The notes under the pieces were generated by a model, which worked only from the letters and a program-made list of their open reading frames with translations, ran no database searches and was not told where the DNA came from. DNA of 64,000 nucleotides from NCBI GenBank assembly GCA_964467225.1, contig CAYXPQ010000001.1, forward strand, positions 6,812 through 70,811. The letters run 5' to 3'. Each line of letters starts with the position of its first letter. Positions within the stretch are counted from its first letter, which is position 1. Shown piece after piece: positions 1-62,944 of this stretch. The translations under genes and the position numbers were made by a program. This DNA comes from an uncultured Candidatus Saccharibacteria bacterium (GTDB lineage Bacteria; Patescibacteriota; Minisyncoccia; Phycocordibacterales; PALSA-1337).

Positions 1-648
1 TTACCAGGAATAGTACAAACACAGACAAATGATAAAGGTTATACATTTTTAGACGGATTGAGATCGGCCCTTAGACAAGATCCAGATATAATAATGGTCG
101 GTGAGATCCGAGACAGTGAGACAGCTGCTATTGCTATTAATTCATCACTCACTGGGCACTTGGTTTTCTCTACATTACACACAAATAGCGCAGCTGGTGC
201 TTTCCCCCGCCTTATAGACCTAGGCATAAATTCCAAAATCATGAGTTCTGCAATAAATATTGTATTGGCTCAAAGATTGGTTAGAAAATTATGTGAACAC
301 TGCAAAAAACCTTTGGCTATTGAAGGAAATGTAAAAACAGAAATAGATTCAGTACTTGCGACTATCTTTGATAAAAACGAAATACCTCCAATGCCAGCAA
401 ATGTTTTTGAAGCAAATGGTTGTGAGAAATGCAATCAAACAGGATACAAAGGCAGAATTGGAATTTATGAAGGAATAAAAATGAGCCCTGAGGTAAATAA
501 TGTTATTGAAATGAATCCAAGTGAAGATGAGGTAGATAAAGCTTCTGCAAATCAAGGAATACTGACAATGAAACAAGATGGTATAATAAAAATATTGAAA
601 GGAATAACATCTATAGATGAATTAGAGAGAGTTATAACAGTAGAATAA
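1..648 (+). CDS. Type II secretion/type IV pilus assembly ATPase (GspE/PilB family), C-terminal fragment; gene starts upstream of window
   Basis: Frame 1 is open from base 1. Conserved GspE C-terminus ([24 protein letters not shown]). Tetracysteine zinc motif CEHC...CEKC is present. Paralogous to 50358..52106. Confidence 0.85.
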
Positions 649-15269: not shown

Positions 15270-15280
15270 TTTACTTTTGA

Positions 15281-17095: not shown

Positions 17096-17102
17096 AATTA
17101 TT

Positions 17103-17735: not shown

Positions 17736-17737
17736 GA

Positions 17738-18166
17738 TTATTTTTGATTTTTATTTGTGTACATGCTTTCTTTTATATCCAAACTCCATGTAAGATCTTT
17801 AAGCTTACTATCAGAAATCTTGGGAACCATAACAGATGCGTATTGTTTGGCTTCCTGAGCAACGTTTGTTGGAACTTTTTTGTCTACTTTTTTCCAAATA
17901 TATAATTTCGATGAAGTAAAATATTTAAATGCCCACTCGACCACATCAATAAATGGAAAACGTTTGTATAGTTTTCCAAATGATAACGCGATTGAGAAGG
18001 ACATAACTAACATTATAGGTACAATGGAAATTATTAATGATGGAATAAATCTATATATAGCAAATGAAATTCCTGCTCCTCCTGCTAGATACACGAATTG
18101 TCGTATTGTTAATTCACCAACTATTTTGTCCTCAACTTCAATAAATTGTGGAACTTGATACCTCAT
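17738..18166 (-). CDS. PrgI/VirB3-like small membrane protein
   Basis: 142 aa with a two-TM hairpin. Position immediately upstream of the VirB4-like gene mirrors Gram-positive PrgI/VirB3. Confidence 0.5.
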   Translation of the reverse strand: MRYQVPQFIEVEDKIVGELTIRQFVYLAGGAGISFAIYRFIPSLIISIVPIMLVMSFSIALSFGKLYKRFPFIDVVEWAFKYFTSSKLYIWKKVDKKVPTNVAQEAKQYASVMVPKISDSKLKDLTWSLDIKESMYTNKNQK

Positions 18167-18195
18167 GCACTTATTATAACATAGGGATTTTTATC

Positions 18196-18879
18196 TTATG
18201 CGAATGGTTCCCTATATGGGTCCACTGTGTATGGTTTTGGTGGTTGATTTTCTTTTTTATCAACAATTGTTTTTTTCTTGGGAGCAATTTCTACTACTTT
18301 TTTCTCTTCGACTTTCTGTGCATTGTTTATCGGGGTTGTTAATAGATGGTCAATCATTGTTGGATGCTGAGCATCTTCTATTTCTTTCAATATAGCTTCC
18401 CTATCTAGGTTGGTGTCATTATATTGAGGCGAACTTGAAGGTGGGGCTTTTGGTTCAATATGGAACTGCCCTTCTTGCTCAAGTTTCGTAGGACCAAAGT
18501 TTTGTTTTTGAATTTGTTGGGATGTGGGTGGTGGGGGTGGGGTGGGTACCGATAAGGGTTTATTGGAATCTGATAAGAATTGATTATCGATACTGCTTTG
18601 TTGTTTGTCCTGAATTTTGGATTGTATTGGTTTTAGTATTAATGTGTTAACATCAGCTACAATTTTGCTTGATAATTCATTATTAATTTCTAGCCTTTTA
18701 TTTATGTTGTTTTGAAAATCATTTGCATGGGTAAAACCCATTATTACATCTTGAATTTCCGCTGCTAATTCATCCTGTAAATCAAGCATTAAGTTGTATT
18801 TTCCAGCAATCAATGAAATATTTTTATATGTTTCATTTGAATATGCTATTTCTTTAATGTAATTTTTTAGTTGATCCAT
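18196..18879 (-). CDS. Hypothetical protein with Pro-rich low-complexity C-terminal half
   Basis: 227-aa ORF containing a PTPPPPPTSQQ stretch. Confidence 0.5.
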   Translation of the reverse strand: MDQLKNYIKEIAYSNETYKNISLIAGKYNLMLDLQDELAAEIQDVIMGFTHANDFQNNINKRLEINNELSSKIVADVNTLILKPIQSKIQDKQQSSIDNQFLSDSNKPLSVPTPPPPPTSQQIQKQNFGPTKLEQEGQFHIEPKAPPSSSPQYNDTNLDREAILKEIEDAQHPTMIDHLLTTPINNAQKVEEKKVVEIAPKKKTIVDKKENQPPKPYTVDPYREPFA

Positions 18880-18886
18880 AATAATT

Positions 18887-20827: not shown

Positions 20828-20829
20828 AA

Positions 20830-22404: not shown

Positions 22405-22410
22405 AATTGT

Positions 22411-23277
22411 CTAATTTGGAATGAAAAATGAACCGCCTTCGTTGTCGTTATATTTCAAACTTAATGAAGTTAATTTGTTTTTGATGTTTAATATTGCATC
22501 AGCAAAAATCTGAACAGTCGGAGTATATCTAGCTACAGCTTGTACTCCCGCAAGCGGGTCTACATCTGATATTCTTAATTTCTCTACAATAAATACCAGA
22601 GAACTTACAGAATTTATTAGATCTATATGCATTTTGGACATTAATTGAGGGACTTCAACATTCAATAAACCATTCAGAATATTTTTGTAACTTTTTATTA
22701 TTGGGTCAAGCTCTTTTAGAATTGCAGGATTCTCTTTGTCGAATGAGTCTTTTGCAATTACGGCTTCATTTCTTGAAGAAATTGAATATGTTTTGAAAAC
22801 ATAACCAGCGTCATTTGCATATTTTCTTATTACATCCACACTATCATTGTTAATTATTTTGAGATTGATTATTGAATACTCCTTCGGAGAAGCTAACATT
22901 ACTCCACTCTGAATGACCTGACCAACCAATTCTTCTTGGCTGGCTTTATCATTTGCATACCCCATCTGTCTGAGTTCCATGTATCTTGCAAAAAAGTCTC
23001 TGCCAAGTAGGTCGGTGGAACTAAGCTTGTCTTTCGATTTGGTCAAATCAGTTGATTTTGAAGTGCTCGCTATGTCATTGGCTTCCAAAATTTTTTGCCA
23101 ATCTACAGATGCCTTGGGATTATCTGGACTAACTATGCTTACAGGATTATTTTTGTATACAATTTCTGATCTATTATTTCTATATTCAGCAACAAAAAAA
23201 GCAACACCTACTAAGCCTATCGCTACTAGGATCATTAACACATTTTTTGTGCTTCCTTTATTGTATAAATACTTCAC
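22411..23277 (-). CDS. N-terminally membrane-anchored hypothetical protein (first gene of T4SS-like operon)
   Basis: 288 aa with a single N-terminal TM helix. Confidence 0.55.
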   Translation of the reverse strand: MKYLYNKGSTKNVLMILVAIGLVGVAFFVAEYRNNRSEIVYKNNPVSIVSPDNPKASVDWQKILEANDIASTSKSTDLTKSKDKLSSTDLLGRDFFARYMELRQMGYANDKASQEELVGQVIQSGVMLASPKEYSIINLKIINNDSVDVIRKYANDAGYVFKTYSISSRNEAVIAKDSFDKENPAILKELDPIIKSYKNILNGLLNVEVPQLMSKMHIDLINSVSSLVFIVEKLRISDVDPLAGVQAVARYTPTVQIFADAILNIKNKLTSLSLKYNDNEGGSFFIPN

Positions 23278-33253: not shown

Positions 33254-34231
33254 ATGGTAACCAGCACATATCATGATATTTATGAATACATTAATAAAAA
33301 TGGACAAGCTTCAATTGTTGAGCTTTTTAATCATTTTAAAATATCTAGGCAGGCAATTTTTAGGCATATTAATAGACTACAAAAGGAGGATCTAATTTAT
33401 AAAATTGGTAAATCACCAAGGGTGTTTTATTTACCTAAAAAACAATCAAAAATAGCAAATACAGGCATTATATCAGAGGATAAGAAAGAAATTATCAATG
33501 AAAATTACCTTATTATTACTCCAGACGGGAGAAGACTAGAAGGAGTTGAAGGGTTCGAATATTGGTGTGATAAACATAATTTACCTATAGAAAAGACTGC
33601 AAATGAATATGTTGATACATTAAAAAAGTATAATAAATATAAAAATGAAGGACTAATTAATGCCACCTCAAAAATTAAAGATAGTTTTGAAGAAATTGGT
33701 CTAGATGCCTTGTATTATAAGGATTTCTATAGCATTGAGAGATTTGGAAAGACCAAACTTGGACTGATTCTCCTCTATGCTAAGCAAAGCCAAGATAGAA
33801 ATCTAATAAAAGAGATTGAGAACATTATAAGACCTTCCATTGTTGATATTATTAATAATAATGATATTGATGCTATTGGGTTCATTCCTCCAACAGTAAA
33901 ACGCGAAGTACAACTTATGAGGGAACTTGAAAGATCACTTAGTATATCTTTACCGATAATAAATTTGGTAAAAATTAAAGGCGATATAGCTATTCCACAA
34001 AAGACCTTGAATAAAATTGAAGATAGAATAGAAAATGCTAGAAAATCTATTATTCTTGATGATAAGAAAGTATATAATAATATTCTTTTGATTGATGATG
34101 CTGTAGGTTCTGGTGCCACTCTAAATGAAACTGCAATTCAAATCAAGAATAGACAACTCTGCAAAGGTAAAATAATTGGATTAGCTATTACAGGTAGCTT
34201 TAAAGGATTTGATGTGATAAGTGAGGTGTAA
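33254..34231 (+). CDS. Winged-helix DNA-binding domain fused to type I phosphoribosyltransferase domain (PurR/ComF-like)
   Basis: N-terminal HTH (IVELFNHFKISRQAIFRHINRL). C-terminal PRPP-binding motif ILLIDDAVGSGATLNE. Confidence 0.65.
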   Translation: MVTSTYHDIYEYINKNGQASIVELFNHFKISRQAIFRHINRLQKEDLIYKIGKSPRVFYLPKKQSKIANTGIISEDKKEIINENYLIITPDGRRLEGVEGFEYWCDKHNLPIEKTANEYVDTLKKYNKYKNEGLINATSKIKDSFEEIGLDALYYKDFYSIERFGKTKLGLILLYAKQSQDRNLIKEIENIIRPSIVDIINNNDIDAIGFIPPTVKREVQLMRELERSLSISLPIINLVKIKGDIAIPQKTLNKIEDRIENARKSIILDDKKVYNNILLIDDAVGSGATLNETAIQIKNRQLCKGKIIGLAITGSFKGFDVISEV

Positions 34232-34962: not shown

Positions 34963-35232
34963 TTATTTTGCCTTAAGGTCTAGCTTCTTAGCGATACTTG
35001 CATGTCGCTTAGGGTGCTTTTTCTTTAGATAGTTCATGTGAGACTGTCTATCAGCAACCATAGCTAGCAAACCTCGTCTTGAGTGATTATCTTTCTTGTG
35101 TTTCTTCAAATGACTAGCTAATTCTTCGATTCTCTTCGTTAATATTGAAATTTGAACCTCTGGAGAACCAGTGTCCTTGTCGTGAATTGCTGATGATTTA
35201 ATGATATTTGTCTTCTGTCGTGTTGTTAACAT
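34963..35232 (-). CDS. rpsO: 30S ribosomal protein S15
   Basis: 89-aa typical S15 sequence. Confidence 0.93.
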   Translation of the reverse strand: MLTTRQKTNIIKSSAIHDKDTGSPEVQISILTKRIEELASHLKKHKKDNHSRRGLLAMVADRQSHMNYLKKKHPKRHASIAKKLDLKAK

Positions 35233-35261
35233 TGCTTGATTATCGTAGCATAAATAACTTT

Positions 35262-35700
35262 AAAGCGCAAGGGGTTGTTGACTAGAAAGAAGAAAACCCC
35301 AGACAATACATCACGTCTGGGGTTATACTGCGACCCACCTTCGTCTTGTGACTTGGTGGCGCCGAGGTCGTTCAGTTTTGGCTAGTGTTCTTGTTTTCGA
35401 AATGCTTCGGCGGGCTGTTCATGGGTGCCTTTCCCTTTTGGATTCACGGAATTGCATTCTTTTTTGGTCTCTCAAGGGATTGCGCTTACCCACACTACGT
35501 GGGGTGCATCTTCTTCACGATGACTCCTTTCTTTGTCGATTTCCCTTCTCTGGCGTGAGGCCGGGGCCGGGTGATCAGGAATTATTTTTTCCGACGCTGA
35601 CACCGACAGGGGGCGGTCCGTTGTTCATGGCTCCTTTTGTTGAGCTTTTAGCTCAGGCGATTATCATGCGTAGGAAGTGATCTACTGTGTTATTCACCTT
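35262..35700 (-). ncRNA. Candidate structured RNA gene in GC-rich island (tmRNA/ssrA-like 3' end); identity unresolved
   Basis: About 50% GC in a ~32% GC context. No credible ORF (the 110-aa plus-strand ORF is Arg/Trp-rich noise). Minus strand reads ...GGCGCCACCA at 35354-35363. An 8-bp hairpin (35296-35323) plus U-tract follows. Adjacent to the tyrosine recombinase gene. Confidence 0.4.
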
Positions 35701-50357: not shown

Positions 50358-52106
50358 ATGCACATAGAAGATTCACAACTAGATAAGTTTATTTTAGATT
50401 CTAATCTAATATCCAAATCTGATTTAGACGAAGCTGAGAAGCAAGCTAGGGAAGAGAATAGACGCTTGGGTGATATTCTTGTAAGTAGTGGCAAAATTAC
50501 TGAAGACAATTTGCGAAGGATGCAAGCTTATGTGCTGGGCATACCTTTCGTGGATCTTAAAAATAGGAAGATACCTTTTGAGACCCTATCAATGATTCCT
50601 GAGCCTGTGGCTAGAAATCATAGTATTGTCGCGTTTAAAAAAGATGATGGAATGTTGGAGGTGGCAATGCTTGATGTAGAAGATCTTTCTGCAATTGATT
50701 TTGTAAAAAAGAAGGTAAATTTAAAGATTCTACCTAGACTTACTGATTCTGAATCAATAAAAAACGTAATAATTCAATACCAAAAGAGTCTTAAAGCAGA
50801 ATTCGGTGATATTATACAGAAAGAATCAGAAACACTAAAAACTATAACAGAAGAAGCGGGGGAATCGTTCTCTGAAGCAGACTTAAAAAAGATTGCAGAG
50901 GATTTGCCTGTGGTAAGAATCGTAGATACATTGCTTAAGCATGCAATATTACAGAACGCATCGGATATTCACATTGAGCCAATGGATGATCAATTATTAG
51001 TTAGATATAGAATTGATGGAATGCTTCATGATGCCATGGTTCTTCCTAAGAGTGCAGAGCCATCTATAACTGCTCGTATAAAGGTGCTATCTAATTTGAA
51101 ATTGGACGAGAAGAGGTTGCCTCAAGATGGTCGTTTTAAGATCGATATGAATAATGAGAAAGTTTCTTTCCGTGTTTCTCTACTCCCAACTTATTATGGA
51201 GAGAAGACAGTAATGCGTCTTCTACGAGAAAGCGTATCTGGTTTTACATTGGAATATCTCGGTTTCCATGGAGAGGGACTAGAAAGGATTCATCATGCTA
51301 CTACTCTTACAACTGGTATGATACTTACAACAGGACCTACTGGATCAGGTAAAACGACAACTTTGTATACTATTTTGGATATTCTTAATCAGCCAGATGT
51401 AAATATTTCAACAATTGAAGATCCTATTGAATATCAAATGAAAAGAATAAATCAAACTCAGGTTAAGCCTGAAATTGGTTTTACTTTCTCAGTGGGATTG
51501 AGGACTTTAGTTAGACAAGACCCTGATGTTATTATGGTGGGTGAGATTCGAGATAATGAAACGGCCTCATTGGCGGTTAATGCTGCTTTAACAGGTCACT
51601 TGGTTCTATCAACACTTCACACTAATAGTGCTGCTGGTGCAATTCCTAGATTGATGGATATGAAAATCGAACCATTTTTACTTGTTTCAACAATAGATAT
51701 AATTATTGCACAGAGACTTGTAAGGAAGCTTTCAGAACATAAAGAAAAATATTTCTTAAGCAAGACTGAAATAGCAACATTATCAAAAACAGTTGATCTG
51801 GATAGGGTGTTGCAAGCATTAAAGGATGAGAAGGTGATTAAGAGTGCGGATTCTTGGGAGAAAATTCCTTTCTGGAAGCCTATTGCATCAAAGGACGATG
51901 ATGGTTATAAGGGAAGATTAGGTATACACGAAGTTCTGAAAGTTACACAAAGTATCAAAGATTTGATTATAAAGGGGGCAACTACTACTGAAATTGAAGA
52001 ACAAGCAAAGAAAGAGGGGATGTTAACAATGATTGAAGACGGAATATTTAATGCAGTAAAAGGTATTACAACAATTGAGGAGGTATTAAGAGTTATTTCA
52101 GAATAA
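50358..52106 (+). CDS. pilB: Type IV pilus assembly ATPase PilB/GspE family
   Basis: N-terminal GSPII_E_N domain. Walker A GPTGSGKTTT. Asp box, Walker B and His box present. Lacks the C-terminal tetracysteine. Confidence 0.9.
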   Translation: MHIEDSQLDKFILDSNLISKSDLDEAEKQAREENRRLGDILVSSGKITEDNLRRMQAYVLGIPFVDLKNRKIPFETLSMIPEPVARNHSIVAFKKDDGMLEVAMLDVEDLSAIDFVKKKVNLKILPRLTDSESIKNVIIQYQKSLKAEFGDIIQKESETLKTITEEAGESFSEADLKKIAEDLPVVRIVDTLLKHAILQNASDIHIEPMDDQLLVRYRIDGMLHDAMVLPKSAEPSITARIKVLSNLKLDEKRLPQDGRFKIDMNNEKVSFRVSLLPTYYGEKTVMRLLRESVSGFTLEYLGFHGEGLERIHHATTLTTGMILTTGPTGSGKTTTLYTILDILNQPDVNISTIEDPIEYQMKRINQTQVKPEIGFTFSVGLRTLVRQDPDVIMVGEIRDNETASLAVNAALTGHLVLSTLHTNSAAGAIPRLMDMKIEPFLLVSTIDIIIAQRLVRKLSEHKEKYFLSKTEIATLSKTVDLDRVLQALKDEKVIKSADSWEKIPFWKPIASKDDDGYKGRLGIHEVLKVTQSIKDLIIKGATTTEIEEQAKKEGMLTMIEDGIFNAVKGITTIEEVLRVISE

Positions 52107-52110
52107 GCAA

Positions 52111-53337
52111 ATGTCACATTTTATTTATAAAGCTAAAAAATCTACTGGAGAAATATATAAAGGTGAAAAAGACGCTAATGATCGTTATGAACTTTATAAA
52201 ATATTAAAAGAATCTGGTGACGAGGTTATTGATGTAAAAGAGAAATTTGGTAGTAGAATATCAATAAAAAGTAGTTTTAATTTCTCATTCTCACTCTTTG
52301 GTAAAGTTAAAGCTCAAGAAAAAATAAATTTTGCAAGAAATCTAAGCTCTATGATTACTGCAGGACTTTCTATGTCTAGAGCATTGTCAGTTATTGAAAG
52401 ACAATCAAAAAATAAATTTTTTCAAAAAATAATTTCTTCATTACAGACAGAAATAACAAAAGGTAAGACCTTAAGTGATGCTATGTCTATGTATAAAAAT
52501 GTTTTCTCTCCACTTTTTATATCTATGGTCTCAGCAGGAGAGAAGAGTGGTACCTTAAATGATTCGCTAAAAATAGTTGCTGACCAATTGGATAAGAATT
52601 ATGTTTTACAGAGAAAAGTGAAAGGGGCAATGATGTATCCAGCGATAATACTTTTTGCAATGGTACTTATCGCTATTTTGATGTTGACATATATAGTGCC
52701 GACCCTAATGAAGACATTTACTGAGTTGAAACTAGATTTGCCTATGTCGACCAAGCTTATACTTTTTACAAGTAAACTATTAATCAATAACGGATTATTT
52801 GTCTTAATTGTAGTTGTTATTCTTATTTCTTTATTTGTTTTGTGGTCAAAAAAAGAAGGAGGTAAGAAAGTAATTCATCTTTTTATATTAAAAATTCCCA
52901 TAGTTGGTAATATTATCAAAGAGGTTAACTCTGCAAGAACCGCAAGGACACTTTCTTCATTGTTAAGTTCAGGAGTAGATGTTGTTGAATCGGTCAAAAT
53001 AACAAAAGATGTTATTCAGAATATTTATTACAAAAAAATCCTGGATAAAGTAGGATTAGCAATAGAAAAAGGAGAACCGATATCAAAGATTTTTACTGAA
53101 AACTCAAATCTATATCCAATTTTCCTTGGAGAAATGATAAATGTAGGTGAAGAAACTGGTAAGATTGGAGAAATGCTTCATGGTGTAGCTATATTTTATG
53201 AAGATGATGTAGAACAGAAGACAAAGGATATGTCTACTATTATAGAACCATTCTTGATGATTATAATTGCTGCTGTGGTGGGATTTTTTGCTGTTGCGAT
53301 GATTTCACCTATGTATTCACTTGTAAATGTTATATAA
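52111..53337 (+). CDS. pilC: Type IV pilus inner-membrane platform protein PilC/GspF family
   Basis: Two T2SS-F repeats and 3 TM helices. 408 aa. Confidence 0.88.
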   Translation: MSHFIYKAKKSTGEIYKGEKDANDRYELYKILKESGDEVIDVKEKFGSRISIKSSFNFSFSLFGKVKAQEKINFARNLSSMITAGLSMSRALSVIERQSKNKFFQKIISSLQTEITKGKTLSDAMSMYKNVFSPLFISMVSAGEKSGTLNDSLKIVADQLDKNYVLQRKVKGAMMYPAIILFAMVLIAILMLTYIVPTLMKTFTELKLDLPMSTKLILFTSKLLINNGLFVLIVVVILISLFVLWSKKEGGKKVIHLFILKIPIVGNIIKEVNSARTARTLSSLLSSGVDVVESVKITKDVIQNIYYKKILDKVGLAIEKGEPISKIFTENSNLYPIFLGEMINVGEETGKIGEMLHGVAIFYEDDVEQKTKDMSTIIEPFLMIIIAAVVGFFAVAMISPMYSLVNVI

Positions 53338-55099
53338 AATCTTACAAAGAAATAAAGGATTTACTTTAATTGAAACCTTAGTTGGTGTGGCAGTATTTCT
53401 AGTTATTTCTACAGCAGTCTATCAAGCCTATGTAAGTCTTTTTAATCTTATTAGCTTAAATCAATATAAGATTGTGGCACTTAATTTAGCAAATGAGCAG
53501 TTCGAGATTGTAAGGAATCTATCTTATGCAAATGTTGGTATTCCTGGAAGTATTCCGAGTGGAAATATTCCACAAGTTCAAAATATTAATAGATCAGGGA
53601 TAGATTTTGTGGTAAGAACAACAATAAGAAATATCGATCAACCTTTTGATGGTACTATAGGTGGAATACCAAACGATACTTCTCCTGCAGATAATAAAAT
53701 GGTTGCTGTAGAAGTTAGTTGTCCTACTTGCGTAAATTTCTTTCCTTTAACATTGACAACAATAATAGCCCCCAAAAATCTTGAAACTGCTTCAGTTAAT
53801 GGAGCTTTATTGATTAAGGTCTTTGATGCAAATGGAGTTCCTGTTTCTGGTGCAAATGTATCAATAAGAAATTATCAAGCAACCACGACCATTGCTATTG
53901 ATGATATGACAAATTCAAATGGAGTCCTACAAATTGTAGACGTACCACCTGGAATAGAAGCATATGAAATATCTGTATCAAAAGCAGGGTATTCTAGTGA
54001 TAGAACTTATCCAAATGGAGCAATTGGCAACCCTACTCCTAGTAAACCACATGCAACTGTAATTGTTCAACAACTAACCCAAGTCAGTTTTTCGATTGAT
54101 AAATTGAGTAGTATTGAATTTAATAGTGTTACCAGTGATTGTATTGCTATACCAAATATTGACTTTGCTTTGAAAGGTGCAAAGCAGATTGGAACAAGTG
54201 TTTATAAATTTAATAAAAACTTATCAACCAATGGGACGGGTGTTTATTCAAGTAGTACTATTGAATGGGACTATTATACTGTTACTGGTATAGACTCAGC
54301 ATATGATATTGCAGGAATCAACCCATTAAATCCAATTAGTCTAAATCCAAATGTTAGTCAAAATGTTCTACTAATTGTTGCTCCTAAAGATCCTAAAGCA
54401 TTGCTGGTTACTGTTAAAGATAATTCTACATTATTACCACTTACTGATGCAACTGTGAGATTGAGGAAAGGTGTAGCTTTTGATGAGACTCAAATTACTG
54501 GTAGAGGATCAATCAATCAAACTGATTGGTCTGGTGGCGCATACTCATTTAATGATGGAAATATTGAAGTGGCAGATCCGATTGGAGATCTGAATTTATT
54601 AAAAGTTTTTGGACTATATAATTTAGGTGGTACGATAGAATCTACTACAATTGATACAGGATCACCAAGTAATTTTTATAATTTAAGCTGGTTACCGATA
54701 GATCAACCTGTAGGAGCAGGAACAGATAGTGTTCGTTTTCAATTTGCTACCAATGCTATTATTACAGGTACAACAACATGGGATTATAAGGGTCCAGATG
54801 GAACTTCAGCAAGTTATTATACGGTCTCAAATTCACCAATATCTTTAGCACATAACGGTGATAGATATGCTAGATATAAAATTTTCTTAAATACACTTAG
54901 TGCAACAAACACGCCTAATATATCCGATGTTTCATTTACTGTTACATCATCTTGTACACCCCCGGGACAAGTTATTTTCTCAGATTTAGATAGCGGTACA
55001 TATATTTTGGATGTAACAAAAACAGGATATAACCCATTTAGTCAAAATGTGGATTTAAATAGTGATTGGCTTGAACAAGAAGTAATTTTGAGTCAATAA
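53327..55099 (+). CDS. Large prepilin-type N-terminal cleavage/methylation domain protein (590 aa)
   Basis: Class III signal: ...KGFTLIETLVGVAVFLVI. Confidence 0.75.
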   Translation: MLYKILQRNKGFTLIETLVGVAVFLVISTAVYQAYVSLFNLISLNQYKIVALNLANEQFEIVRNLSYANVGIPGSIPSGNIPQVQNINRSGIDFVVRTTIRNIDQPFDGTIGGIPNDTSPADNKMVAVEVSCPTCVNFFPLTLTTIIAPKNLETASVNGALLIKVFDANGVPVSGANVSIRNYQATTTIAIDDMTNSNGVLQIVDVPPGIEAYEISVSKAGYSSDRTYPNGAIGNPTPSKPHATVIVQQLTQVSFSIDKLSSIEFNSVTSDCIAIPNIDFALKGAKQIGTSVYKFNKNLSTNGTGVYSSSTIEWDYYTVTGIDSAYDIAGINPLNPISLNPNVSQNVLLIVAPKDPKALLVTVKDNSTLLPLTDATVRLRKGVAFDETQITGRGSINQTDWSGGAYSFNDGNIEVADPIGDLNLLKVFGLYNLGGTIESTTIDTGSPSNFYNLSWLPIDQPVGAGTDSVRFQFATNAIITGTTTWDYKGPDGTSASYYTVSNSPISLAHNGDRYARYKIFLNTLSATNTPNISDVSFTVTSSCTPPGQVIFSDLDSGTYILDVTKTGYNPFSQNVDLNSDWLEQEVILSQ

Positions 55100-55103
55100 T
55101 ATT

Positions 55104-55724
55104 ATGAAAAACACCAAAGATAATAAAACACTAGGATTCACACTACTAGAATTGGTAGTAGTTATAGGAATTATTTCTGCGATTATTATTTCCCTTGGCA
55201 ATTTTCAGACAGATATATTCAAAAATAACAAATTCTCATTTGACTCATTAAATACTGTTCAAGATGCAAAATCTATTATCTCTACAATGGTAAAAGAATT
55301 AAGAACTGCTTCACCTGGCAGTAATGGATCATTTACAATTGTACAAGCGGCGACAAATACCCTGACTTTCTATAGTGATATTGATGGTGATCTCTTAAAA
55401 GAACAAGTTAGATATTACTTAGCCACCACAACTTTGAAAAAAGGAATTATCAAACCTACTGGTAATCCTCTAACTTATAATAATGCTAATGAAACATTTT
55501 CATATTTAGCATATAATATTAGAAATTCATCGACATCACCTTTATTTCAATATTTTGATTCAAATTATATGGGAACATCATCACCACTTACACAACCAGT
55601 TACTACCACAGATGTAAGATTGGTGAAGATAAATTTAATTATTGATATTGATCAAAATAAATCCCCAGTAATTAGGACTTATACTTCGCAGGTCAGTATT
55701 AGAAATCTAAAAGATAATTTATGA
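55104..55724 (+). CDS. Type IV pilin/pseudopilin
   Basis: LGFTLLELVVVIGIISAI prepilin motif. Confidence 0.75.
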   Translation: MKNTKDNKTLGFTLLELVVVIGIISAIIISLGNFQTDIFKNNKFSFDSLNTVQDAKSIISTMVKELRTASPGSNGSFTIVQAATNTLTFYSDIDGDLLKEQVRYYLATTTLKKGIIKPTGNPLTYNNANETFSYLAYNIRNSSTSPLFQYFDSNYMGTSSPLTQPVTTTDVRLVKINLIIDIDQNKSPVIRTYTSQVSIRNLKDNL

Positions 55725-57133
55725 AAAAAGGTTTTATTTTAGTAAATGTTCTTGTTTTCTCAGTTATTGCAATTATCGTAACGACCTCTTTAACAAATTG
55801 GGCAGCAGTAATGCTAAAAGATACTAAAAGATTAACTTATAGAGAACAAGCTTTTCAAATTGCTGAAGCCGGTATTGATTATTATAGGTGGCACTTGGCT
55901 CATGCACCTAATGATTTCAAAGATGGTCATGCTACTACAACAAATGGCCCATTCATTCATGATTTTAGAGATAAAGATAATAATGTTATCGGAAGATTCG
56001 AATTAATTATTACTCCACCACCAGTGGGTTCTACTTTGATTAGAATTAAATCAAAAGGAATTGTGGATGCTGATCCTAATTATCCCAGGACAATTCAGGC
56101 AACTTTAGCTATTCCATCTTTTGCAAAATATGCAGTGGTGGCTGGAGATATTATGAGATTTGGAGTCGGTACTGAAGTTTTTGGACCCATACATTCAAAT
56201 AATGGTATTCGTTTCGATGGATTGGCACATAATCTCATCACTAGTTCAAAGGATAAATATGTGGATCCAGATAATGGTACTGCAAATAGATTTGGGGTTT
56301 ATACAACTGTAGGTACTGTGGATCCCAATCCTCCTGCTGTAGTTCCTAGTAGACCTGATGTATTTATGGCAGGAAGACAATTTCCTGTGGCTGCAGTGGA
56401 TTTCGCTGGAATTACAACTGAACTAGCTACTATGAAGGCTGACGCTATATCTGGTGGTAGATATTTCGCAGCTTCAGGTGCACAGGGATATAATATAGTA
56501 TTAAAGACTAACGATACATTTGATCTATATAGAGTTACTTCAGTAAGAAATTCTCCTGGAGGTTGTAGTAATACACAAGGTCAAACTGGTTGGGCAACTT
56601 GGAGTATCAATAATAGGACTTTTTTGCAAAATTATACTTTACCAGCAAATGGAATAATCTTTGTAGAAGATAATGTGTGGGTAAATGGTCAGATTAATTC
56701 TGCAAGAGTAACTATAGCTGCTGGAAGATTTCCAGATTCATCATCAACTAGAAAGGATATTATTATAAATAATGATTTGTTGTATACTAATTATGATGGA
56801 CAAGATACTATAGCTTTGATAGCACAAGGTAATATAACAACAGGATTGTATAGCGATGATAGTCTTAGAATTGATGCTGCATTAATTGCACAGAATGGTA
56901 GAGTTGGTAGATTCTATTATTCTAGTTCTTGTGGTGTAAATAGTTCTAGATCCGATATAACATTGTATGGAATGCTTGGTACTAAATTAAGATATGGTTT
57001 TGCTTATACTGATGGTACTGGATATAATATTAGAAATATAATATATGATAGTAATTTGCTATACGCTCCTCCTCCAAGTTTCCCTTTGACTTCTAGTCAA
57101 TACTCAATACTGTCTTGGGAGGAAATAAAATAG
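55721..57133 (+). CDS. Pilin-like protein lacking Glu5 (minor pilin/GspK-like)
   Basis: KKGFILVNVLVFSVIAII hydrophobic N-terminus without the conserved glutamate. Confidence 0.6.
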   Translation: MKKGFILVNVLVFSVIAIIVTTSLTNWAAVMLKDTKRLTYREQAFQIAEAGIDYYRWHLAHAPNDFKDGHATTTNGPFIHDFRDKDNNVIGRFELIITPPPVGSTLIRIKSKGIVDADPNYPRTIQATLAIPSFAKYAVVAGDIMRFGVGTEVFGPIHSNNGIRFDGLAHNLITSSKDKYVDPDNGTANRFGVYTTVGTVDPNPPAVVPSRPDVFMAGRQFPVAAVDFAGITTELATMKADAISGGRYFAASGAQGYNIVLKTNDTFDLYRVTSVRNSPGGCSNTQGQTGWATWSINNRTFLQNYTLPANGIIFVEDNVWVNGQINSARVTIAAGRFPDSSSTRKDIIINNDLLYTNYDGQDTIALIAQGNITTGLYSDDSLRIDAALIAQNGRVGRFYYSSSCGVNSSRSDITLYGMLGTKLRYGFAYTDGTGYNIRNIIYDSNLLYAPPPSFPLTSSQYSILSWEEIK

Positions 57134-57151: not shown

Positions 57152-57910
57152 ATGAAAAAAATTGTAATAGGTAATTGGAAGATGAATCCAACTTCATACT
57201 CTGAAGCTTTAAAAATTTTCAACTCAATAAAAAGATTTTCTTATAAATTGAATAAAATTGATGTAGTTATATGTCCTCCTTCTGTTTACGTTCATTCATT
57301 TATCAAAAAGAATAAAGATAAAATAATTGCAATTGGCTCACAGAATGTCTTCTATGAAGAGCAGGGATCATATACAGGTGAGTTGAGTGTCAAAATGTTG
57401 AGGGATATTGGTGTTACTCATATAATTGTTGGTCACTCAGAGAGAAGATCAAATGGTGAAACTGATGATGATATATCTAAAAAGATACAAATCACTTTAG
57501 CGAATGATATTCGCCCTATTCTATGTATTGGTGAAAAAGAAAGAGATTCAAGTGGCAATTATTTGAATTTTATAAAAGATCAGATCAAAAATTCTCTTTC
57601 AAAAACTAACAAAAAATTCATTAACAAATTAATTATTGCTTATGAACCAATATGGGCTATTGGTGCAAAGGAAGCTATGAGTCCGAGTGATATACTAGAA
57701 ATGAGTTTATTTATTAAAAAAGTGATTTCAGATATTTATGGCCAAGGAGAGATAGATAATATACCAATATTGTATGGTGGTTCTGTTAATTTTAAAAATG
57801 CATCGGATATTATTATACAAGGACAGGTCAATGGTTTATTAGTTGGAAGAGAGAGTGTTAATTCGATTGGTTTTATAGAATTATTAAAAGCAATAGATAC
57901 AATACAATAA
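57152..57910 (+). CDS. tpiA: Triosephosphate isomerase
   Basis: IGNWKMN and VGHSERR motifs. Confidence 0.93.
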   Translation: MKKIVIGNWKMNPTSYSEALKIFNSIKRFSYKLNKIDVVICPPSVYVHSFIKKNKDKIIAIGSQNVFYEEQGSYTGELSVKMLRDIGVTHIIVGHSERRSNGETDDDISKKIQITLANDIRPILCIGEKERDSSGNYLNFIKDQIKNSLSKTNKKFINKLIIAYEPIWAIGAKEAMSPSDILEMSLFIKKVISDIYGQGEIDNIPILYGGSVNFKNASDIIIQGQVNGLLVGRESVNSIGFIELLKAIDTIQ

Positions 57911-57911
57911 T

Positions 57912-58982
57912 ATGAAAAGCATAAAAGATATAAAGAAGCTTGATGGGGTAAGAGTTCTTGTCAGGCTAGATTTAAATGTACCTATTCAAAATAATGTTAT
58001 TGTAGATGATTTTAGAATTAAAAAAGCTTTACCATTAATTCAGTATCTTTCGGATAACGGTGCAAATCTTATCCTAATTAGTCATATTGAAACAGTTGAT
58101 AATCCCACTTTAAAGCCAGTTGCTGAATATCTAATTAAATTAGGTATTGATTGTGCCTTTGAGAAAAATTATAGAAATGTTTTAAATAATAAAAGTAAGA
58201 TTATTCTTCTTGAAAATTTAAGAGAGTATGAAGGGGAAAAGAAAAATGATAAGAAATTTGCTAAAGAACTAGCTTCTCTCGCTGATATTTATGTAAATGA
58301 AGCATTTTCTGTATCTCATAGAGATCATGCTTCCGTCTCAGCTATTACGGAATTTATACCAAGTTATGCTGGATACCAATTTGAAGAAGAAATAAAGCAT
58401 TTAAGTACTGCTTTTAACCCTGAACATCCTTTTCTATTTATTCTTGGAGGTGCAAAATTTGAGACAAAATTTCCATTATTAGAGAAATTTATTGATTCGG
58501 CGGATAAAATATTTGTAGGAGGTGCACTTGCAAATAATTTCTTCAAAGAAATGGGACAGGATATAGGTGATTCTCTTGTTTCTCCAGAAAATTATGACTT
58601 ACAAAGATTTATTAATACAAAAAAGATTGTTCTACCCATAGATAGTCTAATAAAAGACAAAAAAATAATGGATGCAAGTACTAAGACTGTTGAATTATTG
58701 AAACAAGAGATAGATAAAGCAAAATATATTTTGTGGAATGGTCCACTTGGTGCATATGAATCTGGATATAGAGCTTCTACACTTCAACTTGCAGAAATTT
58801 TAGCAGATGCAACGGCTAGAGGCGTAAAGACTATAGTTGGTGGTGGTGATACTCTAGCTACTATAGCAGAATTAAAATTAGTAAATGGTTTTACTTTCGT
58901 TTCAACTGGCGGAGGGGCAATGTTAGATTATCTTGCAAAAGGTACATTACCTGGAATTGAGGCATTAGAAAAGGGGCTATAA
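57912..58982 (+). CDS. pgk: Phosphoglycerate kinase (short form)
   Basis: RxDLNVP N-terminal motif and C-terminal GGGA/ATP-binding region. 356 aa. Confidence 0.9.
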   Translation: MKSIKDIKKLDGVRVLVRLDLNVPIQNNVIVDDFRIKKALPLIQYLSDNGANLILISHIETVDNPTLKPVAEYLIKLGIDCAFEKNYRNVLNNKSKIILLENLREYEGEKKNDKKFAKELASLADIYVNEAFSVSHRDHASVSAITEFIPSYAGYQFEEEIKHLSTAFNPEHPFLFILGGAKFETKFPLLEKFIDSADKIFVGGALANNFFKEMGQDIGDSLVSPENYDLQRFINTKKIVLPIDSLIKDKKIMDASTKTVELLKQEIDKAKYILWNGPLGAYESGYRASTLQLAEILADATARGVKTIVGGGDTLATIAELKLVNGFTFVSTGGGAMLDYLAKGTLPGIEALEKGL

Positions 58983-59336
58983 CATTGAGACAATTTTGTC
59001 TCTATTAGTTTTGAAATCTTTGGGATCTCCGGTGGTTCCTGGCTTTGGGAATATCCATATATGTGCATGTGGTACTTCTTCTCCTATGACCTTGCTCCAT
59101 ATTTCTTCTGTACCAAATGCTTTACGCTGTGCTAATGCTATCTTTCTAGCCACTTCGAAATATTCGCCGCAATTTGGTACATCCCATACCCATCTATGAT
59201 GATTCTTTGGAACTATTAGACTATGTCCTGGTGAGCGAGGATCTATACTTAGAAATACTATAAAATCTTTATCTTCATGCACAATATCCGCTGGCACTTC
59301 CTTTTTAATTATTTTACAAAATATGCAGTTGTTCAT
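58977..59336 (-). CDS. HIT family hydrolase
   Basis: CIFCKII start and histidine triad region HxHxH-like (NHHRWVW). Confidence 0.85.
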   Translation of the reverse strand: MNNCIFCKIIKKEVPADIVHEDKDFIVFLSIDPRSPGHSLIVPKNHHRWVWDVPNCGEYFEVARKIALAQRKAFGTEEIWSKVIGEEVPHAHIWIFPKPGTTGDPKDFKTNRDKIVSML

Positions 59337-59374: not shown

Positions 59375-61057
59375 ATGCCCAAATATCAGATCAGAGAATT
59401 AAGAGACGGTGACTTTATTGATAATCTACTTTTTCACCGTGGAATCAAAACCGCAGAAGATAAAGAAAGATTTTTGAATTTAAATTATAATGAGCAAACA
59501 CATGACCCTTTTCTTCTAAAAGATGCCGAAAAAGCAGCAAAGAGAATAATTAAAGCAATAGAAAATAATGAAAAGATAGTTATCTATAGTGATTATGATG
59601 CAGATGGAATCCCAGCAGGGGTTATTTATCACGATTTATTTAAGAAAATAGGATTTAAGAATTTTATAAATTATATACCTCATAGACATGATGAGGGATT
59701 CGGACTAAATATTGATGCTGTAAATCAGTTCATAGAAGATAGGGTAAACCTAATTATTACTTTGGATTGTGGTATTTCTGATAATGAGGCAGTAAAATTG
59801 GCTCAAGATAATGGAATAGATGTCATAATAACCGATCATCATGAGCCACATGAAGAATTACCAAAAGCTTATGCAATAGTTGATCATAAACAAAAAGATT
59901 GCAATTATCCAGAAAAGATACTTTGTGGTTCTGGTGTAGGATATAAGCTAATACAGGCAATTTTAAAAATTAATAGATTTAATTTGAAAGAAGGTCAAGA
60001 GAAATGGTTCTTGGATATGGTTGGAATCGCTACATTGTCAGATATGGTACCTTTGGTGGGGGAGAATCGTGTTTTTGCTAGTTATGGACTAACTGTTCTA
60101 CGCAGAAGTCCAAGAAAGGGCTTAGTTAGACTATTGAATCATTTAAAAATCAATCAAAGATATTTGAATGAAGATGATATTGGGTTCATGATTACTCCGA
60201 GAATCAATGCAGCATCTAGAATGGGAGTGCCGATGGACGCCTTTCATCTACTTTCTACTGAAAGCGATGATGATGCTAATAAATTCACAGAACATTTGGA
60301 TAGAATTAATAATGAAAGAAAAGGCACAGTCGCTTCTCTTGTAAAAGAAGTTAAAAAGATAATAAATGAAAGACATAGGGAAAATCCAAGAAATGTAATT
60401 GTTGTTGGAAATCCAGAATGGAAGCCGTCGCTACTGGGGCTTGTTGCAAATATTTGTGCCGAGGAATTCAGCAAGCCTGCATTCATATGGGGTAGGGATG
60501 GAGATAATATCATCAAGGGTTCATGTAGATCAGGCGATACCGTAAGTGTAGTGGAGATAATGAAGAACGTACCAGATGGAGTGATGATTCAATACGGTGG
60601 TCACTTCGCTTCCGGAGGCTTCGTCGTAAGTAATGAGGCAATACATCACTTTGAGGATCATCTAAATTCTGCTTTTGACAAATTAATTAAAGAGAATAAT
60701 GATATTGAGCCAGATTATATTGATTATGAATTAGATTTGGATCAAGTGAATTGGGAGATCTATTCTCAAATTGAGAAATTGGCACCATTTGGTATCGGTA
60801 ATGAAAAGCCATTATTTATTTTTAAAGATATAAAAATTGTAGGAATAAAGCATTTTGGCAAAGAACAAAATCATTTGGAATTAAATTTTAAAAGCAAAAA
60901 GGGAAATAAAATTAATGCTATGGGATTTTTTATGAATTCAGGCAGTTTTGCAAAAGAATTAAAAGTTGGAATGAATATAGATCTTGTTGCTACACTTGAA
61001 AAATCTATGTTTAGAGGTCGAGCAGAGCTAAGATTGAGAATTGTTGATATACTATAG
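59375..61057 (+). CDS. recJ: Single-stranded-DNA-specific exonuclease RecJ
   Basis: DHH motifs (DYDADG, ITDHH) and DHHA1 domain. 560 aa. Confidence 0.9.
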   Translation: MPKYQIRELRDGDFIDNLLFHRGIKTAEDKERFLNLNYNEQTHDPFLLKDAEKAAKRIIKAIENNEKIVIYSDYDADGIPAGVIYHDLFKKIGFKNFINYIPHRHDEGFGLNIDAVNQFIEDRVNLIITLDCGISDNEAVKLAQDNGIDVIITDHHEPHEELPKAYAIVDHKQKDCNYPEKILCGSGVGYKLIQAILKINRFNLKEGQEKWFLDMVGIATLSDMVPLVGENRVFASYGLTVLRRSPRKGLVRLLNHLKINQRYLNEDDIGFMITPRINAASRMGVPMDAFHLLSTESDDDANKFTEHLDRINNERKGTVASLVKEVKKIINERHRENPRNVIVVGNPEWKPSLLGLVANICAEEFSKPAFIWGRDGDNIIKGSCRSGDTVSVVEIMKNVPDGVMIQYGGHFASGGFVVSNEAIHHFEDHLNSAFDKLIKENNDIEPDYIDYELDLDQVNWEIYSQIEKLAPFGIGNEKPLFIFKDIKIVGIKHFGKEQNHLELNFKSKKGNKINAMGFFMNSGSFAKELKVGMNIDLVATLEKSMFRGRAELRLRIVDIL

Positions 61058-61060: not shown

Positions 61061-61540
61061 ATGAAAATTTCAATTTTTACTGATGGATCTTCAAGAGGTA
61101 ATCCAGGTCCTGGAGGATGGGGAGCTATTATATTGGATAATAATAATATCAGGGAAATCGGAGGGAGAGAAGATGTGACTACAAATAACAGAATGGAATT
61201 GATGGCTTGTATTAAATCTTTAGAGAGTATTTCGCCCACTTCAGCAATAGTTCTGTATTCAGATTCTCAATATGTAATAAAGGGTATGACAGAATGGATA
61301 GAAGGCTGGCAAAGGAAGAATTGGAAAAATTCTCAGAAGAAAGACGTGTTGAACAGAGATCTATGGGAGAAAATGCTTGAAGTTTCAAATGGTAAGAATA
61401 TTGAATGGAAATATGTTAAAGGTCATGCCGAAAATCCAGGAAATAATCGTTGTGATGAAATCGCCACAAGTTTTGCGGATAACGAGCCAACAAAATTGTA
61501 CGATGGACCTATTGACTCATACAGTATAAGAATTGTGTAA
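61061..61540 (+). CDS. rnhA: Ribonuclease HI
   Basis: FTDGSSRGNPGPGGWGAI motif. Confidence 0.92.
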   Translation: MKISIFTDGSSRGNPGPGGWGAIILDNNNIREIGGREDVTTNNRMELMACIKSLESISPTSAIVLYSDSQYVIKGMTEWIEGWQRKNWKNSQKKDVLNRDLWEKMLEVSNGKNIEWKYVKGHAENPGNNRCDEIATSFADNEPTKLYDGPIDSYSIRIV

Positions 61541-61609: not shown

Positions 61610-62944
61610 ATGAACAAAAAAATAAATATAGTTATCATTTTGATTTTAATAGCAATTCTCATTTTTCGATTCTACTTTGCATTTAATATTGATAATACAG
61701 ACTTGATAAAAAAATATTCAGGTCAAAATATTGAAATAAAAGGGATAATAATAAATGAACCACAAATAAAAGATTTCAATCAAGCGTTTAACGTTAAGAC
61801 TGACAAATTTATCACCAAGGTTACAACAGATAGGTATATAGAATATAATTACGGTGATAGGATTAGTTTAAATGGTAAAATTAGCACTCCAAGAAATTTC
61901 CAAAGTAACGGTGGAAGAACATTTGATTATATTAATTTTCTATTAAAAGATGGAATTGTTTTTGAAATGAAAAAACCATCAATTAAATTTGAGGGTAGAA
62001 ACGAGGGAAAATTTATTTCAAAAAATCTTTTTAAATTTAAACAGGCTTTCCTCTATAATCTCAAAAAGGTTTTGGGTGAACCTCATGCTGCTCTGGCAGG
62101 TGGACTTGTGGTAGGGGAGAAAGGAGCTCTGGGTAAAGAATTAATAGATGATTTCAGGAAATCTGGACTGATACATATCGTAGTTCTGTCTGGTTACAAT
62201 ATTACAATTGTGGCGGATTCGATAAGAAGAATACTTTCATTTCTACCTAGGGTAATTGGGATTATTCTCGGAGGATTAGGAATATTGTTTTTCGGAATTT
62301 TGGTAGGTGGTGGCGCTACTGTTATTAGATCATGCATCATGGCGATCATTGCACTGTTCGGTTCGTTGATTAGGCGAGACTATAATGTTGGCAAGGCTTT
62401 ATTTGTGGCAGGAGTTTTGATGTTGATTCAAAATCCATTAATTTTGCTTTATGATCCTTCTTTTCAATTATCTTTTCTAGCAACTCTCGGTCTTATATTT
62501 CTTTCTTCTCCAATTGAGAATAAATTAAATTTTGTTACTGATACTTTCGGTATTAGAGGACTCATTGCCTCTACACTCGCAACTCAAATATTCGTATCGC
62601 CATATATACTCTATATGATGGGACAATTATCAATAATTGGAACTATTGTAAATATTCTTGTATTACCAATAATCCCTATAACTATGTTTTTTGTTGCTGT
62701 GACTGGGTTAATCGGTTTTATAAGTGAAGGTATTTCTCAGATTTCTGCTTGGGTTTCACATCTGCTACTTTCATATGAATTATTTATTGTGAAATTCTCT
62801 GCATCACTTTCATTCTCATCAATTCAATTACCGAAATTTCCTTTCTCAATAGTTGTTGGATTTTATTTAATCTATTTTGTAATGCTTGTAAAATTGCCTT
62901 CAACCCTCTGCCAATTTAAGTTTTGGAAGAAATCTTCAACGTAA
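61610..62944 (+). CDS. comEC: ComEC/Rec2 family DNA internalisation channel protein (membrane domains only)
   Basis: N-terminal OB/DUF4131-like region and polytopic competence domain with HIVVLSGYNI motif. No MBL domain in this ORF. Confidence 0.8.
   Translation: MNKKINIVIILILIAILIFRFYFAFNIDNTDLIKKYSGQNIEIKGIIINEPQIKDFNQAFNVKTDKFITKVTTDRYIEYNYGDRISLNGKISTPRNFQSNGGRTFDYINFLLKDGIVFEMKKPSIKFEGRNEGKFISKNLFKFKQAFLYNLKKVLGEPHAALAGGLVVGEKGALGKELIDDFRKSGLIHIVVLSGYNITIVADSIRRILSFLPRVIGIILGGLGILFFGILVGGGATVIRSCIMAIIALFGSLIRRDYNVGKALFVAGVLMLIQNPLILLYDPSFQLSFLATLGLIFLSSPIENKLNFVTDTFGIRGLIASTLATQIFVSPYILYMMGQLSIIGTIVNILVLPIIPITMFFVAVTGLIGFISEGISQISAWVSHLLLSYELFIVKFSASLSFSSIQLPKFPFSIVVGFYLIYFVMLVKLPSTLCQFKFWKKSST

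Follow-up and report, generated by a model that had tools for sequence, protein, structure and literature searches.

A probable core type IV filament operon of Paceibacteria, with a zinc-less PilB, a modular pilin and a predicted ComZ-like pilin

We analyzed a stretch of 64,000 nucleotides (the window, 64 kb), an AT-rich chromosome piece of ~33% GC that includes dnaA and dnaN. The subject is a run of five densely packed genes on the + strand at 50358-57133, separated by gaps of 4 nt or overlapping by 4-11 nt. A first-pass annotation, made from the letters alone, had read this run as a type IV pilus-type locus, and the five open reading frames (ORFs) bear out that reading. They are listed here together with the two genes that follow them.

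50358..52106, + strand: PilB1, extension-type type IV pilus ATPase, 582 aa (Pfam, NCBIfam, motifs, relatives in the PDB)
52111..53337, + strand: PilC/GspF-type inner-membrane platform protein, 408 aa (two Pfam T2SSF matches, E=1e-53)
53327..55099, + strand: modular pilin, probably minor, 590 aa (Pfam, NCBIfam, AlphaFold2, Foldseek, hhalign)
55104..55724, + strand: small pilin, probably minor, 206 aa (class III signal, N_methyl)
55721..57133, + strand: ComZ-like candidate tip pilin, probably of the GspK/PilX class, 470 aa (AlphaFold2, Foldseek, PilX_N matches of the family)
57152-57910, + strand: tpiA (Pfam TIM on the identical gene in relative L001)
57912-58982, + strand: pgk (Pfam PGK on the identical gene in relative L001)

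The pilus genes run straight into tpiA-pgk, as had been claimed, with 18 nt between the 470-aa gene and tpiA and 1 nt between tpiA and pgk. The sole intergenic terminator-like hairpin lies at 58987-59002, 3' of pgk, and the remaining + strand matches are intragenic. Being co-directional and tightly spaced, tpiA and pgk are probably co-transcribed with the pilus genes; they are no part of the pilus machine. A six-frame motif scan of the 64 kb found two canonical G-F-T-L-[IL]-E prepilins only, the 590-aa and 206-aa proteins, neither of which has the size of a shaft pilin. By tblastn, the window holds two T2SSE ATPases, PilB1 and a second one at its start (PilB2), and no second platform protein. 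Among the window ORFs (36 scanned with Pfam hidden Markov models, the other translations read), none was seen to encode PilD, PilM/N/O, PilQ or PilT; the survey was not exhaustive, and the first-pass statement that these genes are missing here is well supported to that extent.

PilB1 matches the Pfam families T2SSE (E=1e-119) and MshEN (E=4e-13, residues 60-145). Its motif residues are found at 326-333 (Walker A), 354-358 (Asp box), 388-399 (Walker B) and 412-422 (His box). The NCBIfam models give 519 bits for PilB (TIGR02538), 507 for GspE and 176 for PilT (TIGR01420), all of them under the curated equivalog cut-offs (675.65 for PilB and 630.25 for GspE). PilB1 is a divergent member of the superfamily and an equivalog of neither PilB nor GspE. 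The closest solved structures are Myxococcus PilB, Geobacter PilB and Thermus PilF (E~1e-118), with PilT following only at E~1e-34. A ComGA model reaches 250 bits on PilB1 (cut-off 300) and covers the ATPase core only. The platform protein scores under the respective cut-offs of the NCBIfam GspF, PilC and ComGB models, the last with 168 bits (cut-off 240), and the matches to ComGE and ComGF are N-terminal only and below their cut-offs, so that the locus does not qualify as a firmicute ComGA-GG system. Neither PilB1 nor PilB2 fits the description of PilT or PilU (~350 aa, no MshEN domain, best match to TIGR01420).

PilB1 shares its domain order and all ATPase motifs with the canonical PilB of type IVa pili (T4aP; Myxococcus 3jc8, Geobacter 5tsg/5zfr) and with Thermus PilF. 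It differs from canonical PilB in the C-terminal zinc motif (CxxC...CxxC). The four zinc ligands are substituted (KLSEHK ... IASKDD), the segment between their positions is longer, and the whole protein contains no cysteine. The first-pass contrast between this ATPase and the start-of-window paralogue thus proves correct (0 Cys versus CEHC...CEKC). None of the 63 full-length PilB1 orthologues has the tetracysteine motif (0/63), and its loss is common to the whole PilB1 clade. Such a loss across a clade, in an otherwise canonical PilB, amounts to a natural experiment on the role of the motif.

As a separate observation, PilB1 residues 12-54 (window 50391-50519; RLGDILVSSGKI...) come close to the MshEN motif model for binding of cyclic di-GMP (c-di-GMP), with 35.8 bits against a cut-off of 38. 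This near-match is odd in a lineage that is not known for c-di-GMP signalling.

The 590-aa protein, encoded by the first pilin gene after pilC, starts with MLYKILQRNKG/FTLIE (Gly-1, Phe+1 and Glu+5; the slash separates positions -1 and +1). It shares with the 206-aa protein the elements that define a class III signal, namely a short basic leader, Gly-1, Phe+1, Glu+5 and a hydrophobic helix of ~20 aa. Together with the N_methyl match, the KG/FTLIE site establishes the genuine class III prepilin N-terminus that the first-pass annotation had proposed for this large ORF. Pfam further finds CarboxypepD_reg (PF13620) at residues 164-227 and a PEGA-like stretch at 552-579. In the family, N_methyl and PF13620 occur in 67-68 of 68 members (PF13620 in 68/68) and PEGA in 52/68. 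Structure prediction with AlphaFold2, which had been suggested as a check on the large pilin, gives a pilin module and a beta-sandwich chain: a long N-terminal helix (14-63) and a small four-stranded sheet (84-147), followed by beta-sandwich domains strung together (pLDDT 84). Foldseek relates this stalk to the CnaB/Ig-type stalk proteins TIE, PitA, SpaA, SpaC and BcpA. Over its full length, the profile of the 206-aa family can be aligned by hhalign to residues 8-158 of the 590-aa protein (probability 95.6%), with a shared ...RNL/KNL motif closing both pilin-module alignments; therefore, the 590-aa protein holds a complete pilin module. It consists of this full module (~155 aa) and ~435 grafted residues of beta-sandwich.

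The 590-aa protein fits the definition of a modular pilin, an IPR012902/N_methyl module joined to a domain that is not pilus-specific. In this it resembles Streptococcus sanguinis PilB and PilC and CofB of enterotoxigenic Escherichia coli, which likewise combine a small pilin module with grafted non-pilin domains. It carries several sandwich modules and not one, which sets it apart from the modular pilins surveyed by Raynaud et al. (PMC8179133). The combination of IPR012902 and PF13620 is among the 15 commonest modular-pilin architectures in that survey, with several to many representatives from the Candidate Phyla Radiation (CPR) (PMC8179133); the architecture has no assigned function. More than 1849 full-length homologues of 580-620 aa exist at 55-85% identity, those with a name belonging to Patescibacteria or Taylorbacteria. 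The mature protein is acidic (isoelectric point, pI, 4.5), which makes it a poor candidate for DNA binding. The first-pass suggestion that it may be a DNA-binding pilin therefore lacks support; the DNA-receptor-like fold belongs to the 470-aa protein.

The 206-aa pilin starts with MKNTKDNKTLG/FTLLE and matches N_methyl, as do all 44 members of its family (44/44). Its similarity to solved pilins is confined to the N-terminal helix, and the profile searches of PDB sequences with all three pilin families matched nothing beyond that helix.

The 470-aa protein has the N-terminus MKKG/FILVN. Gly-1, Phe+1 and the hydrophobic helix are kept, and position +5 is Asn, not Glu. The family pattern is G-[LFMI]-[IV]-L-[IV]-N, with Asn5 kept in the orthologues. 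The protein of the window has no Pfam match of its own (for PilX_N, none at E<=0.1); 29 of 67 members of its family match PilX_N (PF14341), with a best E-value of 2e-5. Asn5 bears out the earlier description of a protein without Glu5, and these family matches point to a probable GspK/PilX-like pilin, as also described at first pass. The AlphaFold2 model (pLDDT 82) shows a helix (2-61), a four-stranded sheet (78-129) and a beta-solenoid-like domain (~139-442). In the PDB, the three best Foldseek matches are all to ComZ of Thermus thermophilus (the three chains of 6qvi, with E=3e-9 to 2e-8 and probability 1.0), and beyond ComZ only the solenoids of ice-binding proteins are found. ComZ itself consists of a GspK-like pseudopilin domain and an ice-binding-protein-like solenoid, is not recognised by PilFind, and has the same ice-binding-protein solenoids as structural neighbours (PMC6561018). 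It binds the neighboring pilin PilA2 and DNA, and has been argued to occupy the pilus tip (PMC6561018). The 470-aa model combines the same two elements, a GspK-like pilin domain and an ice-binding-protein-like beta-solenoid.

The parallel with Thermus ComZ/PilA2 (6qvi, 6qvf; PMC6561018) extends to a hydrophobic N-terminal helix that is not a canonical prepilin signal and to the gene setting. ComZ (~500 aa) is encoded beside small pilins, and the 470-aa gene is similarly located beside the 206-aa pilin gene. The two genes overlap by 4 nt, which is consistent with a possible partner role of their products. There are differences as well. ComZ carries its solenoid as an insertion in the pilin sheet, while the solenoid of the 470-aa model mostly comes after the four strands; no sequence similarity to ComZ is detectable, the likeness being one of predicted fold; and the host is here presumably a CPR cell without a secretin.

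Both large pilin families also contain invariant cysteines. In the 590-aa protein these are C132-x-x-C135 at the end of the pilin module (53720-53731), C272 (54140) and C543 (54953); in the 470-aa protein they are C282 (56564) and C404 (56930). They may form disulfides or a metal site. The PilB1 ATPase, by contrast, has lost all of its cysteines.

A scan of species-representative genomes (one per species) found relatives of the 590-aa protein in at least 389 genomes. The figures on synteny and identity given below refer to the best 80 loci, picked by similarity of the 590-aa protein, and the identity of that protein is thus biased upward. These 80 loci belong to Paceibacteria/Parcubacteria, among them Taylor-, Nomura-, Zambryski-, Campbell-, Giovannoni- and Portnoybacteria. 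Their gene order is nearly invariant: nusA on the - strand, then pilB-pilC-590-206-470-tpiA-pgk, then HIT on the - strand and recJ. The order tpiA-pgk is kept in ~58 loci. The median identity to the window proteins is 77% for PilB, 58% for PilC, 54% for the 590-aa protein, 48% for the 206-aa protein and 63% for the 470-aa protein, compared to 51% and 55% for the flanking tpiA and pgk. The pilins are thus conserved like housekeeping enzymes, which fits machine parts and not fast-evolving shaft pilins or host-specific adhesins. The locus had been called unusual at first pass, a view that the comparison does not uphold: a large CPR clade shares, as its conserved state, the 590-aa pilin, a PilB without the zinc motif and the direct passage into tpiA-pgk. 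Nor is the large pilin unusual, given that the prepilin-PF13620 architecture already ranks among the commonest modular pilins (PMC8179133).

Additional PulG/PilA-type pilins lie near the block in two relatives, two of 249 aa at 9649-11169 in L005 and two of 336 and 579 aa at 15073-17904 in L067. Shaft-type and further modular pilins thus occur in the clade, outside the fixed core, the typical 249-aa PilA-like pilins (L005; other PulG/PilA-type pilins in L067) being separate genes.

From the gene identities, signal motifs, predicted folds and conservation, all observed here, we consider it likely that the locus is a core type IV filament operon of the class Paceibacteria (Parcubacteria), in which a motor for extension and a platform are accompanied by three pilins for priming and for the tip. 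Tip location, assembly order and ligand are what we infer beyond this. The hexameric PilB1 extension ATPase would turn the PilC platform, by which pilins are pushed from the membrane into the filament. The three pilin-like proteins would be a minor-pilin set and not the shaft; they would start assembly and end up at the tip, on the pattern known from GspI-J-K, PilV-W-X or PilA2-ComZ of Thermus. The 470-aa protein, with no Glu5, a PilX_N-type helix and a ComZ-like solenoid, would cap the filament. The 206-aa pilin would dock under this cap via its N-terminal helix, and the 590-aa modular pilin would display its ~435-aa beta-sandwich chain at or near the tip. The genes for the major pilin, for the prepilin peptidase, for alignment proteins of the PilM type and for a retraction ATPase, if there is one, would lie elsewhere. 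Homologues of pilB, pilC, pilM and pilT have been reported across CPR phyla, and in a sister class within the CPR, the Saccharibacteria, type IV pili have been characterised by experiment, with large minor pilins that bear accessory domains and no PilD signal (PMC11623550).

The minor pilins of type II secretion systems (T2SS; GspI-J-K) and of T4aP (PilV-W-X) are likewise low-abundance pilins encoded together, with one large Glu5-less member capping the fibre. Unlike these systems, the present set has three members only, with no equivalent of FimU/GspH and no PilY1; one member has a long beta-sandwich stalk, and the genes lie directly behind pilB-pilC. The T4P-1 and T4P-2 pili of the saccharibacterium TM7x likewise belong to a CPR organism that has two PilB paralogues and whose large minor pilins bear accessory domains and no typical PilD signal; experiments have shown that these pili act in host binding and motility (PMC11623550). 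Their loci place pilM/N/O, pilD and pilT beside pilB-pilC, whereas here only pilB, pilC and three pilins are found. The accessory domain of TM7x PilX2 is a beta-propeller, unlike the sandwich and solenoid domains described here, and PilB2 is an orphan in the present case.

Several points weigh against this interpretation. Because only 64 kb of the genome are visible, a complete machine is assumed, the major pilin, PilD, PilM/N/O and PilT not being seen within the window. The match to ComZ is one of predicted fold only, with a TM-score of ~0.3 and an identity of 13%, and the 67-member profile of the 470-aa family did not retrieve ComZ 6qvi among PDB sequences at E<=10. Finally, the choice of the 80 loci by 590-aa similarity inflates the identity figure of that protein.

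What the filament would capture can be read in two ways that are not mutually exclusive, and we hold each with the same tentative confidence, short of even. According to the first reading, the filament is a dedicated DNA-uptake pilus. The ComZ-like 470-aa tip and its 206-aa partner would bind extracellular double-stranded DNA, and retraction or disassembly would hand the DNA to ComEC for nucleotide scavenging or transformation. The genes concerned lie downstream:

59375-61057, + strand: recJ (Pfam match)
61061-61540, + strand: rnhA (Pfam match)
61610-62944, + strand: comEC, DNA-uptake channel (Pfam Competence and DUF4131 domains)

The sole significant match of the 470-aa protein among solved structures is ComZ, a DNA-binding tip pilin paired with an adjacent small pilin, which makes DNA capture at the tip plausible. 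The comEC gene is located 4.5 kb downstream, and of the 51 related loci with recJ, 42 keep the order recJ-rnhA-comEC and one more has comEC without rnhA. This linkage is weak evidence, since gene order is generally conserved in streamlined genomes, and five unrelated genes (tpiA, pgk, HIT, recJ and rnhA) separate the pilins from comEC. Conservation of the pilins at housekeeping level, across lineages with probably different hosts, fits a universal ligand such as DNA. Cultured Saccharibacteria have been shown to possess natural competence that depends on ComEC, and the CPR as a whole conserves com genes; type IV pili have an essential role in Saccharibacteria that is, however, independent of comEC (PMC10633639). 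A beta-solenoid fold alone does not make a DNA binder either, and the two DNA-contacting lysines of ComZ cannot be mapped without a sequence-level alignment. The isoelectric points are near neutral (pI 6.7, 470-aa protein) or acidic (590-aa protein, as given above), and PilB1 is a full-length PilB with MshEN and not ComGA-like. These points speak against a dedicated DNA-uptake system.

The comEC gene of the window is itself short, encoding 444 aa with Competence and DUF4131 domains and no beta-lactamase domain. The stretch from recJ to comEC lies 2-5 kb downstream of the pilus genes.

According to the second reading, the pilus serves adhesion to a host or surface, with the 590-aa stalk (PF13620 and Ig-like domains), the 470-aa solenoid, or both acting as tip adhesins toward the host. 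The similarity of the stalk to the Gram-positive adhesive pilus and stalk proteins TIE, PitA, SpaA and SpaC speaks for it, as does the classification of PF13620 as a carbohydrate-binding-like fold (PMC8179133). Host binding in Saccharibacteria requires PilX2, a large minor pilin with an accessory domain (PMC11623550). Adhesins for diverse hosts usually diverge fast, however, while the proteins described here keep 50-91% identity across many candidate phyla-level groups, with ~80-90 invariant columns per protein. No ligand-binding site was identified in the putative adhesins.

The second ATPase bears on a further reading:

1..648, + strand: PilB2, the C-terminal 215 codons of a second PilB/GspE-type ATPase (frame open from nt 1)

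PilB2 is 45% identical to PilB1 over the 215 visible residues and retains the zinc motif, with CEHC at residue 98 and CEKC at residue 141 of the fragment. It is followed in the window by ruvB-yebC-ruvC. Its NCBIfam scores are 224 bits for PilB, 222 for GspE and 86 for PilT. We computed a tree by neighbour joining from the C-terminal region that these ATPases share (196 columns, no support values), with PilTs from pilB-pilT-pilC loci as the root. PilB1 stands in a tight clade of its own, PilB2 groups with orthologues located upstream of ruvB, and a third group is made up of the canonical PilBs, Myxococcus and Geobacter PilB among them; both window ATPases lie inside the PilB ingroup. The NCBIfam scores and the phylogenetic check proposed at first pass thus identify the start-of-window ATPase as PilB/GspE-type and not PilT-like.

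In relatives, the PilB2 gene is flanked by polA-tsaE on one side and ruvB-yebC-ruvC on the other, and no PilC, pilin or PilM gene adjoins it in any relative examined. A metagenome scan with PilB2 yielded mostly generic PilBs of 42-50% identity, because one of the search patterns (QDPDIIMV) is a universal one; the true orthologues amount to about nine loci. Intact orthologues of 558-583 aa with two CxxC motifs were found in L090, L092 and L094-L097. The gene is located upstream of ruvB in L090, L094, L095, L096 and L097, while the contig of L092 is short and ruvB is not visible on it. The gene is intact and syntenic in relatives and is therefore maintained, as an orphan paralogue.

Two other explanations for PilB2 were considered and rejected. 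Frameshifts (one each in L083 and L089, at least three in L084, the neighboring genes being intact) and fragments of 185-341 aa raised the suspicion of a decaying pseudogene. We reject decay as a general state, since the fragments come mostly from contigs of ~1 kb, the genes of L086 and L087 are interrupted by scaffold N-runs near the Walker A region, and six intact metagenome orthologues exist. The gaps in L086 and L087 probably represent assembly collapse between the two paralogues. Gene fission was also considered for the recurrent C-terminal ORFs of 258-263 aa, which are explained by a conserved Met just upstream of Walker A and by assembly breaks.

As suggested at first pass, the zinc-less PilB1 and the zinc-containing PilB2 might power two distinct filaments, or might divide extension and retraction of a single one between them, a reading that we regard as speculative and rather unlikely. 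In its favor, both proteins are PilB-type, they are only 45% identical and belong to separate clades, and PilB2 is intact and syntenic upstream of ruvB in five relatives, thus maintained. Saccharibacteria operate two pili with two PilBs (PMC11623550). Against this stand the solitary position of PilB2 in all relatives examined, its frameshifts in L083, L084 and L089, and the single platform protein of the window. There is no precedent-independent evidence for retraction by a PilB-type paralogue, and just 215 codons of PilB2 are visible in this genome.

A more far-reaching variant, which we consider doubtful, unites these elements in a Paceibacteria-wide tip complex, with the ComZ-like solenoid as a DNA receptor that feeds nucleotide auxotrophs, PilB1 as a specialised motor and PilB2 as its antagonist or as a second motor. 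If it were true, the conservation of the pilins at the level of glycolytic enzymes would reflect an essential, universal ligand and not host recognition.

A T2SS-like pseudopilus (GspE-F with an I-J-K-like set) that exports proteins and forms no surface pilus is improbable. The GspE and GspF models score nearly as high as the PilB and PilC models and the minor-pilin set follows GspI/J/K logic; yet no secretin and no GspC/L/M are found in the window, PilB1 has a PilB-type MshEN domain, and its closest solved relatives are PilB/PilF and not GspE. CPR cells have been described as lacking an outer membrane and bearing visible pili, which also counts against a pseudopilus. It is still harder to credit an unusually thick filament whose major subunit would be the 590-aa protein. 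Its perfect class III signal with Glu5, the place of its gene as first pilin gene after pilC and the lack of a shaft-sized pilin in the window could be invoked in favor. However, a helical type IV filament could hardly accommodate, for steric reasons, a multi-domain appendage of ~435 aa on each subunit; in conservation pattern and modular build the protein matches minor, tip-type pilins (PMC8179133); and ordinary PilA-like pilins are present in related genomes.

Few surface machines are conserved in the CPR, and type IV pili are one of them. In cultured Saccharibacteria experiments have linked them to twitching motility and to host binding, and some of the pilus genes are essential (PMC11623550, PMC10633639). 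For the far larger, almost uncultured Parcubacteria/Paceibacteria, the present analysis defines a compact five-gene core that is present in hundreds of species and gives likely roles to three proteins annotated merely as ‘prepilin-type domain’ or ‘hypothetical’. The ComZ-like 470-aa protein is a concrete, testable candidate for a tip that binds DNA or another ligand. CPR type IV pili, paired PilBs, large accessory-domain minor pilins and the PF13620 modular architecture have already been published. In the PubMed Central open-access papers and bioRxiv preprints searched, we found no earlier account of a ComZ-like assignment of the 470-aa family, of a clade-wide zinc-less PilB, or of the fixed five-gene core between nusA and tpiA-pgk. 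These three points are refinements; they fill in the known picture and do not overturn current understanding.

Three other regions of the window deserve mention. A type IV secretion system (T4SS)-like cluster occupies 11403-23277 on the - strand and matches the monoderm-conjugation-like T4SS described for Patescibacteria (PMC12102498). Its members are:

12700-13842, - strand: T4SS_pilin, weak match
15281-17095, - strand: VirB4/TraG P-loop ATPase
17738-18166, - strand: PrgI/VirB3-like protein
18887-20827, - strand: large polytopic membrane protein
20830-22404, - strand: DUF4141 protein

An island of ~50% GC at 35290-35680, in a genome of 33% GC, has rpsO (34965-35240, - strand) on one side and an integrase-like ORF on the other. 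A clean intrinsic terminator (AACCCCAGAC...GUCUGGGGUUUUCUU) closes the island on the - strand. The island gave no Rfam match at E<=0.1 and no tmRNA call, the Rfam scan of the whole window and the island returning four tRNAs and nothing else. It may represent an undescribed or very divergent non-coding RNA. Finally, the gene at 33254-34231 on the + strand encodes a protein of 325 aa that has a winged-helix domain at its N-terminus and matches a phosphoribosyltransferase domain weakly (E=8e-4); it might be a ComF-like competence protein or a regulator of the phosphoribosyltransferase type.

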